Origin: a virus
Lineage: Duplodnaviria > Heunggongvirae > Uroviricota > Caudoviricetes
Direction: 5' to 3' (one strand)
IMG/VR virus record: IMGVR_UViG_3300029745_000181
DNA length: 27,172 nt
Part shown: piece after piece, positions 12,001 through 15,000 of the stretch
Layout: the number at the start of each line of letters is the position of its first letter
Numbering within the stretch: the stretch's first letter is position 1
Position numbers: made by a program

Positions 12001-15000
12001 GTGACTCCGCGTATTCTGCCTGGCGTTACCGCCATCGGGCAAGGTGCGTGGCTTAAAGCGGATATGTTTGGTGACCGGGTCGATCACGGCGGCAGTATCA
12101 ATATTCTGACCTCTCACCGCCCTTCACCGCTGGCAAAGGGAAACCCGTCGCACAGCAATCTTGTCCAGATCGAAAAGGTTTAAGGAGTAGCCCATGACCA
12201 CACAATATGGATTTTTTATCGATTCCAGCCGCTGTACTGGCTGTAAAACCTGCGAACTGGCGTGCAAAGATTTTAAAGTTGGTTACGTATCGTTTAAAAT
12301 CAATTAGATAGCCCGTCATTTCTGCGCTCACACGTCCCAACATTGAAAAACATGCAAAGCTTTGTAAGCCGATGCAAAGCTTTGTGTGTCTCACTTTTGT
12401 CCCAATACCAATCCGAATCCACCCTTTGTCATCATTGAGAAATGGCAAGGAAGAAAAGGATGTTACTGCACGATTTGACAAATCCGCCAGAGCTATCGCA
12501 TACTGATCGCACTGAACAAATAAGCGGTCTCCGCACCCGATAGCTTTGCGGCTTTTTTATGCCTGCAATTTGGCATAGTTACATCCGTACAAAGGTCGGG
12601 TGGAGAGGCGTAATACAACACCCGCAAGGGGAATATGCCCAGAGCTTCTTATTTGGCTCAGTTGACACCCGACCGCCAGCTACTAACTGGCGGTTATAAA
12701 CTAAACAAATAAGGAGGTCATCATGACCAGTCAACTCATCCCCGTATTCAACGGCACTATCGACAACGAAACAGCCCTACTCTGCAATGCCCGCGATCTG
12801 CATGCTTTTTTAGGCGTGAAAAAAGTGTTTGCGGCATGGATTACAAATCGCATTTCAGAATACGAATTCATTGAAAATCAAGACTATATTTTGCTTTCCA
12901 ATTTGGGAAAGCAAACATCTGGTAGAGGCGGTCACAACCGCAAGGACTACCACCTAACTCTCGACACAGCCAAAGAACTGGCGATGGTTGACGACTGCGT
13001 CCAATACTGACTATACTCCGCGCCGAGGCCTCGAAAACCTCCCAAAAGCGGATTAAACCAACCCCGTCAGTGTTGGATTTTTTATGCCTGTTATTCAGTG
13101 ATAGCACAGTGTGCGGTCACATCCCCGATCAATGTCGGGAGGGCGACGAATACAACACCCGCAAGGGGAATAAGTCCGCGGTATCTTTTGGGCCGTTTCG
13201 AGCCTCCCGGCACCACATTTTGTGGTGGCATTTCTCGAAAAAAGCCAAAGGAGGTCATCATGACCACTCAACTCATCCCTGTGTTTGAAGGTACAATCTC
13301 AAATGAACCTACGCTTCTGGTGAACGCGCGTGATTTGCATGGATTTTTAGAGGTAGGTAAAGATTTTTCTAACTGGATACGGGCCAGGCTAAACGAGTAT
13401 GGATTCGTAGAAAATTTAGACTACATTCTATTTTCGCCAAATTTGGCGAAAACTCCAGGCCGCCGCCGCAAGGATTACCACCTCACCCTCGACACAGCCA
13501 AAGAGCTTGCGATGGTTGAACGTAACGAAAAAGGCCGCCAGATACGCCGCTACTTCATCGAGTGCGAAAAGAAACTTCGCAACATTCAGCCAGTACAAGC
13601 AGAACCACAGCCGCAATTCACAGCCGAGGAAATCATCCTCCTTTGCTACATGCAGCTCTGGATGGAAAAAGCCCAGGACCTTAGCAAGCAGCTGTACCCC
13701 ATAATGAAAGAGCTGAACTCCTCATACACGAACAAGCTGTATGACATTGCGTTTGAGACTATCTACATGGTGACGAAGAACAGAGATGTGCTACTGAGAG
13801 AGGCGGCACGGCTTGACCAGTCGAGTTTCGTAGTTCAGCGGGCCAGACCAATGCTGAAAAGCCTGCGGGCAAGACAATTTGAATTCTGATACCAAAGGAG
13901 CTTCGGCTCCTTTTTTTATACCTGAACGACAACGCCGCTGAAATCGAAGAGTTAATACAATAAAGAGAAGAGCTCAGTACATTAGATAAACATTTTTTAT
14001 CATTATCTCATTGCCTTTATTCAAAAAAATAGTTACATAACGTTACTAGGTAAAATGCAAACCCTCGCTATTTTTATCAGATTGTATGCCGGTAACTATA
14101 ACAAAAATCAGAACTGGAGAAGATGTTTTGTCAGCAGCCATTCACCGCATTGAATGGTTGTTTGAAACATTCTCTTCTGTATGTTTATCTTTTTCTGGCG
14201 GTAAAGATTCCACTGTACTTTTCCATCTTGTAGCCGAAGTGGCCTACAGGAAGAAACGTCGTTTTTCTGTATTGTTCATTGACTGGGAAGCCCAGTATCA
14301 ATGCACCATTGATCATATACAGAAGATGCGGATGATGTACCAAGATGTAACAGATACCTTTTACTGGGTTGCACTTCCCCTGACGACAGTAAATGGTGTC
14401 TCGCAGTTTCAGCCTGAGTGGATATGCTGGGAGCCCGGTGTAGAGTGGGTTCGACAGCCACCGGAAGATGCTATTACTGATATGGCGTATTTCCCCTTTT
14501 ACCGCTACGCCATGACTTTTGAAGAATTTGTCCCAGCTTTTTCTTCCTGGTTCGCAAGTAACCAATGTAGCGTGGCAATACTGACTGGAGTCCGCGCGGA
14601 TGAATCTCTTAACAGATTTATGGGACTGGTTTCCCAACGAAAACTGAGATATGCAGATGATAAACCCTGGACCACGGCGTCACCTGAAGGTTTTTACTAC
14701 ACCATGTATCCGCTGTATGACTGGAAAACCAACGATATCTGGGTATATAACGCTAAAACCTGTGCAATCTACAATCCTCTGTATGATTTGATGTACCGTG
14801 CAGGCATTCCTCTACGTAATATGCGTGTCTGTGAGCCTTTTGGCCCGGAACAGCGTAAGGGACTATGGCTTTATCATGTTCTGGAGCCAGAAACTTGGGC
14901 ACGGATGTGTGAACGAGTATCTGGTGCTGCCAGTGGGGCTCTTTATGCCAATGAAAGCGGGGCCTATTTTGCCCTGCGTAAACGGATGTCAAAACCATCC

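Follow-up and report, generated by a model that had tools for sequence, protein, structure and literature searches.

We found that ynfG is interrupted by a prophage in the DNA analysed here, a stretch of 27,172 nucleotides (IMG/VR record IMGVR_UViG_3300029745_000181; the window). We consider it very probable that a 933W-like phage inserted site-specifically in ynfG, that the far part of ynfG now lies with ynfH and dmsD about 60 kb away, and that this copy of the prophage is defective and, most likely, toxin-free. Of these elements, we observed directly the junction and its core, the identity of the phage arm, the deletion, and how frequent the insertion is among genomes.

The host side of the junction is almost indistinguishable from K-12. 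The window matches K-12 MG1655 at 99.98% identity over positions 753-12278, and similarity is lost abruptly after base 12278. Within this match lie ynfE (7273-9699, plus strand), an intact 808-aa open reading frame annotated as ynfE in K-12 and RefSeq that encodes a catalytic subunit of the FNR-activated ynfEFGH-dmsD operon, and ynfF (9757-12183, plus strand), also intact and full length. A sequence-only reading of the window had called both genes intact, had recognized the start of YnfG in a 37-codon frame behind them, and had proposed that an inserted prophage split ynfG and that phage-like DNA follows the stub. Our comparisons support each of these points. The check it had suggested, alignment to an uninterrupted ynfG, was run against K-12; it placed the break at 12278, with phage DNA directly beyond, and defined a core, TTTAAAG.

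The stub open reading frame occupies 12194-12307 (plus strand), with an ATG at 12194 and a TAG stop codon at 12305-12307. It translates as MTTQYGFFIDSSRCTGCKTCELACKDFK followed by VGYVSFKIN and the stop (whole product, MTTQYGFFIDSSRCTGCKTCELACKDFKVGYVSFKIN). Residues 1-28 are identical to K-12 YnfG and are followed by nine phage-coded codons and TAG, so that the native share of ynfG is 28 codons (12194-12277) plus the first base of codon 29. The sequence-only reading was right that the frame changes character and then stops, but the native string it gave was 26 amino acids long rather than 28. The stub contains Cys14/17/20/24, the first of four cysteine groups, and Pfam recognizes only one 4Fe-4S motif in it. 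The same 84 nt are annotated by PGAP in relatives as 'incomplete 4Fe-4S binding protein'. Besides the stub, no piece of ynfG aligned anywhere in the window.

The window also contains the end of a second prophage (346-1912), at the position of the cryptic Qin prophage of K-12 and approximately 10 kb from the ynfG prophage. Adjoining rspB there are genes for an excisionase (346-597) and a 431-aa integrase (617-1912; Arm-DNA-bind_2 and Phage_integrase domains), the latter intact. In K-12 Qin, intQ is a pseudogene. JARVDN010000001.1 is from a genome near-identical to the window.

The core appears to be the site of strand exchange. We lined up attB from K-12, attL from the window, and attR from the far junction of the RM10410 and UPEC-245U prophages. 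TTTAAAG (attL copy at 12272-12278) was the sole block common to all three, and it covers codons 27-28 and the first base of codon 29 of ynfG. It is probably the 7-bp overlap region of a tyrosine integrase. The attP deduced from the line-up, CAAC-TTTAAAG-TTG (CAACTTTAAAGTTG), is a perfect 14-bp palindrome, as expected of inverted core-type sites flanking a 7-bp overlap. In the paralogue dmsB, two of the seven core bases differ, which fits an integration specificity toward ynfG.

The phage side of the junction begins with an attachment-site arm. Positions 12279-12484 are identical to the end of phage POCJ13 (206/206), and alignments to Sepvirinae phages that use other integration sites begin only at 12475. 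We therefore assign 12279-12474 to the P' arm, as part of an int-attP module. The motif GTCCCA occurs in this arm at 12334-12339 and 12399-12404, and GTCCCA(A) is found twice in the P arm of relatives in the same orientation; these motifs are candidate arm-type Int sites. Two ATGCAAAGCTTTGT palindromes, 20 bp apart, lie within 12351-12385 and could be candidate protein-binding (Xis/IHF-like) sites or a sib-like RNA element. A third, GATGCAAAG, is found in the P arm of relatives.

The two palindromes together can form a 17-bp hairpin (12350-12389, plus strand) that was flagged as terminator-like (dG -22.7 kcal/mol, z = -5.15). This strong hairpin lies 45 nt past the stop codon of the stub. It may terminate the ynfEF transcript in the lysogen; alternatively, in the free phage, it could act on int transcripts in the manner of sib. 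A match of this hairpin to mir-19 was spurious (26 bits, against a threshold of 50 bits). We dropped another candidate, an intrinsic terminator at 12525-12556 (CCGCA...TGCGG followed by T6), which had a folding z of -0.65 and was absent from the terminator scan.

These features suggest the following model. A temperate Sepvirinae phage of the POCJ13 / 75-02 / PhiR5_2 group would have entered its usual bacterial attachment site within ynfG, with strand exchange by the tyrosine integrase inside the 7-bp TTTAAAG. The window holds the attL junction, running from ynfE and ynfF through 28 codons of ynfG, the core and the P' arm into the antirepressor, moron and tail genes at the right-hand end of the prophage. 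ynfG is thereby split, with only the first of the four cysteine groups retained by the stub. By analogy with relatives, the remainder of ynfG would lie together with ynfH and dmsD about 60 kb distant, behind the phage int and away from the FNR-dependent ynfE promoter. YnfEFGH would be non-functional, and dmsD would be expressed by read-through from int or from unmapped internal promoters.

The DNA beyond the junction is that of a 933W-like phage. The phage part of the window matches Escherichia phage PhiR5_2 (97% coverage, 97.9% identity), which with POCJ13 and 75/02 makes up the best matches, all 933W-like Sepvirinae; many 933W-type Stx phages match as well. A 933W-like set of late and accessory genes is present. 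Next to the arm are two antirepressor modules on the plus strand. The first (12475-13010) consists of a promoter-like site (12475-12504), a target CAAATAAG (12517-12524), an RNA of the sRNA-Xcc1 family (12594-12682), a second target CAAATAAG that abuts the Shine-Dalgarno sequence (12706-12713), and a truncated AntA open reading frame (12723-13010). The second (12988-13889) has a promoter-like site (12988-13017), targets at 13029-13049, an sRNA-Xcc1-family RNA (13134-13219), targets over the Shine-Dalgarno sequence (13231-13255), and a full AntA/P22_AR_C open reading frame (13260-13889).

The RNA elements of these modules (Rfam RF02221) each lie just 5' of an antirepressor open reading frame. 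In each copy, the loop of the second hairpin and the linker after it are complementary to sites that lie approximately 80-100 nt upstream and to others that cover the Shine-Dalgarno sequence of the downstream frame. Loop and targets differ between the two copies in the window, and complementarity is kept. We checked for such covariation in viral contigs sharing the conserved core (loci L030-L131), which gave 40 distinct hairpin variants, and scored whether exact complements, 7 nt or longer, were present at the upstream and the Shine-Dalgarno site alike. Such complements were found in 68% of the 40 cognate variants and in 1.8% of 1502 non-cognate pairings. Eight of 10 downstream frames sampled had antirepressor-type domains (Rha, ORF6N, KilA-N or Bro-N). 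The layout of sRNA-Xcc1 and antirepressor matches that of the c4 / a1b1 / a2b2 / ant system of P1, and the elements look like antisense immunity regulators of the P1 c4 type. A canonical C4-isrK-ORF6N module is present elsewhere in the same prophages. In the open-access papers that we found, by contrast, sRNA-Xcc1 is treated as a trans-acting virulence sRNA.

Relatives indicate how the far end of the prophage is probably arranged. In RM10410 and UPEC-245U, a gene for a 387-aa tyrosine integrase is followed by 40 nt, the core, ynfG from codon 29 onward, ynfH and dmsD, all co-oriented. The integrases of POCJ13, RM10410, UPEC-245U and PhiR5_2 are identical at 387-388 of 388 positions and contain a Phage_integrase domain. 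The distance from core to core in RM10410 is 62,500 bp, the same as the published size of that prophage. We infer that the far end in the source genome is similar.

This arrangement has consequences for the downstream genes. ynfEFGH-dmsD is a single FNR-activated operon (PMC3688515), YnfG connects the catalytic subunit with YnfH, the membrane anchor (PMC5203670), and maturation of DmsABC needs DmsD (PMC12096835). By analogy, we infer that ynfH and dmsD are orphaned from the ynfE promoter, which is approximately 62 kb away in the relatives. No terminator-like site was found between int and the ynfG remnant in a scan of RM10410. Some read-through transcription into ynfH and dmsD is possible, because these genes lie directly behind the co-oriented int with no intervening terminator-like site. 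A promoter scan around int, the ynfG remnant, ynfH and dmsD of RM10410 found 3 sites, compared to 3.7 expected from shuffled sequences, and thus no excess. Lysogens are predicted to lack the YnfEFGH selenate/tellurate reductase; expression of dmsD may be altered, which could affect DMSO respiration.

The insertion might do more than disconnect genes, and might rewire regulation at both ends. The FNR-activated ynfE promoter would now run through the stub into the P' arm and the two co-oriented antirepressor modules, and dmsD would fall under the int/early-left transcription unit of the phage. If so, anaerobiosis could be coupled to antirepressor expression and prophage behaviour, and the phage would gain control, via dmsD, over maturation of DmsABC, the main DMSO reductase. 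We regard such rewiring as unlikely.

Beyond the antirepressor modules, the prophage carries moron and late genes. An ibrA-like gene (PAPS reductase/DUF3440; 14086-15312) and an ibrB-like gene (ParB_N; 15297-15941) form a moron block at 14086-15941 on the plus strand. The genes that follow are on the minus strand: a gene for a SocA/Panacea-domain protein (16030-16554), a decapitated gene for a giant virion protein (LPD5/LPD1/MuF_C/LPD38; 16705-21600), a 46-aa open reading frame of the hok/gef toxin family in the late region (21752-21892), and a set of late/accessory genes (22124-26754). The latter comprise lom (22124-22858), two genes for small membrane proteins (22945-23849), a tail-tip fibre gene (23864-25132) and a gene for an internal virion protein (25129-26754). 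No Sok-type RNA scored above the Rfam threshold in the window. The gene with the SocA/Panacea antitoxin domain immediately follows the giant MuF_C/LPD38 gene, and no separate gene for a toxin adjoins it; as a speculation, its product might confer immunity to the giant protein, if the C-terminus of that protein is toxic.

We found that this copy of the prophage has lost virion genes. Relative to PhiR5_2 and S1-CAM-02-A, 6574 bp are deleted, with the scar at 21672/21673 and a CTCTC microhomology. Lost with it are four whole genes of the virion region, the greater part of a fifth, and 3.4 kb from the 5' end of the giant gene, and so the window copy lacks the complete virion gene set that an intact, inducible prophage needs. 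The giant protein is missing its first 1162 profile positions (PHROG profile positions 1163-2793 of 2793 remain), and the remaining frame has no proper start. An exact look-up of this truncated 1631-aa frame found no record, and gene callers start it at 1628 aa. The same scar is present in six other draft or metagenome assemblies (99.97-99.99% identity) and in 0 of 5426 RefSeq complete genomes.

The prophage of one near-identical lineage has decayed in several steps. One of the six assemblies with the scar (L020; GCA_900449285.1, UGCK01000002.1) is 99.97% identical to the window over 12 kb and reaches 9.6 kb past it. At 4700-8050, the terminase-portal-capsid block (PhiR5_2 25401-33386) is missing from this assembly, as is the tail-fibre gene (34765-36950). 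Other assemblies have further lesions. One (L013; GCA_040406505.1), 99.97% identical and with the same 6.6-kb deletion, has an additional IS3-family insertion at window position ~23630, between the genes for the tail-tip fibre and a 205-aa membrane protein. In another (L014; GCA_036038505.1), which also has the ynfG prophage, ynfE and ynfF are fused by a 2.15-kb deletion between the paralogues (window 8714-10865).

Three published Stx1 phages have this attachment site and integrase type, and it might be supposed that the window is part of a complete, inducible Stx-converting prophage like POCJ13, 75/02 or RM10410, with stx located past the end of the window. The sequence-only reading had seen no stx gene, and indeed nothing in the window aligned to the stx1 region of RM10410; the window stops approximately 25 kb short of the stx position in that prophage. 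stxA/stxB would be expected between the Q antiterminator and nanS-p, in a part of the prophage past the window, and the nearest relatives have no stx there. We think a complete, inducible Stx-converting prophage very improbable. Coverage of the phage part by the Stx1 phages is only 77-80%, with 91-92% identity, whereas the stx-less PhiR5_2 and UPEC-245U prophages cover 97-100% at ~98% identity and include the ibrAB/socA block. The loss of 6.6 kb of virion genes and of the start of the giant gene also argues against an inducible phage. Moreover, in the 99.97%-identical assembly, the sequence upstream of nanS-p is of the stx-less PhiR5_2 type, and the blocks for terminase to capsid and for the tail fibre are missing. 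Virion genes are lost, and stx is absent from PhiR5_2 and UPEC-245U, the closest complete relatives; we therefore think it most likely that the window copy is a remnant, both defective and stx-negative.

Many phages that integrate at tRNA genes or at 3' ends rebuild the target gene, and the insertion would be functionally silent if a working ynfG were rebuilt at the far junction. In RM10410, the attR remnant is an open reading frame of 183 aa with a GTG start, consisting of phage-coded MSNN, then FK and YnfG residues 29-205. It is annotated by PGAP as an intact 'DMSO/selenate reductase B subunit', and it lies 40 nt behind the co-oriented int with no terminator-like site between. In UPEC-245U, by contrast, PGAP marks the remnant as a pseudogene. 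The phage-coded N-terminus contains no cysteine. The remnant lacks Cys14/17/20/24, so that group I (CxxCxxCxxxC) is gone in its entirety and 12 of the 16 cluster ligands (groups II-IV) are kept. The sixteen cysteines of the four CxxCxxCxxxC(P)-type groups are therefore not found together in any one polypeptide: group I is in the stub, and groups II-IV are in the remnant of the relatives. In four-cluster ferredoxins of the DmsB type, every cysteine group contributes to two clusters. Without four of its sixteen ligands, the 183-aa remnant is very unlikely to be functional, despite the one PGAP call of an intact gene. Restoration of ynfG at the far junction is thus extremely unlikely, and the interrupted enzyme is expected to be lost.

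The insertion in ynfG recurs at low frequency in E. coli. We surveyed 5426 RefSeq complete E. coli genomes, of which 5326 have the locus. Uninterrupted attB was found in 5230 of these 5326. The attL junction of the window was present in 78 of all 5426 genomes, too many for chance, and the int-ynfG junction (attR) in 89; the insertion is found in approximately 1.7% of complete genomes. In strain 30EVA1, an IS1 lies within ynfG. We give virtually no credence to the stub being an assembly error or a non-phage rearrangement such as an IS insertion or deletion: other lesions of the locus do occur (this IS1, and the ynfE/ynfF fusion deletion in one assembly), but the identical junction appears in 78 independent complete genomes and the reciprocal one in 89, both junctions share the 7-bp core, and the arm matches, base for base, that of a phage whose integration has been demonstrated by experiment.

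Prophage insertion at ynfG is already known, as a documented site and an ordinary site-specific event, since three such insertions have been published. POCJ13 was shown experimentally to integrate site-specifically into ynfG of MG1655 (PMC4193171), phage 75/02 uses the ynfG site (PMC5447701), and the entry for the RM10410 Stx1a prophage reads ynfG-(1,803,652-1,866,151)-ynfG (PMC10562709). These reports bear out what the sequence-only reading had stated, that ynfG is a recognized target of lambdoid prophages, Shiga-toxin-converting ones included. The value of the present finding is mainly in annotation, and PGAP already flags the stub as a partial gene. In strain typing, an occupied ynfG should trigger a check for stx1a, though the evidence here favours a decayed, toxin-free relative.

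Comparison with named phages places the window among the Sepvirinae that use ynfG. POCJ13 (Stx1a; Sepvirinae, Diegovirus; NC_025434) resembles it in the ynfG site (S1742 in Shigella), in the 206 bp of identical P' arm, in an integrase with 387-388 of 388 residues identical to that of the window's relatives, and in the layout of the late genes (giant LPD5 protein, lom, tail-tip fibre and two terminal antirepressor genes). Unlike the window, POCJ13 carries stx1a and has Ea22/DUF551 genes in place of ibrA/ibrB/socA. It covers 79% of the phage part at 91% identity and is a complete phage of 62.7 kb, in contrast to the window with its 6.6-kb deletion. The best overall matches were PhiR5_2 (PV340546) and the UPEC-245U prophage (NZ_CP049845), with 97-100% coverage and ~98% identity. 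Both are stx-less, have the ibrAB-socA block in common with the window, and share integrase and attR sequence with each other. In both, unlike in the window, the giant gene is complete (2789 aa) and the five genes missing from the window are present. Over 1.5 kb, the window and the attL region of the RM10410 Stx1a prophage are 99.6% identical; this prophage and the Shigella sonnei phage 75/02 differ from the window in being Stx1a-converting and in having other accessory genes beside the antirepressors.

The integration site itself is organized much like those of lambda-type phages and 933W. As in those systems, a tyrosine integrase gene adjoins attP (in the relatives), and there is a short overlap core with inverted core-type sites and repeated arm motifs. 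In 933W, the target is wrbA. Here, in contrast, the target is ynfG; the insertion lies close to its 5' end, and the gene is not restored.
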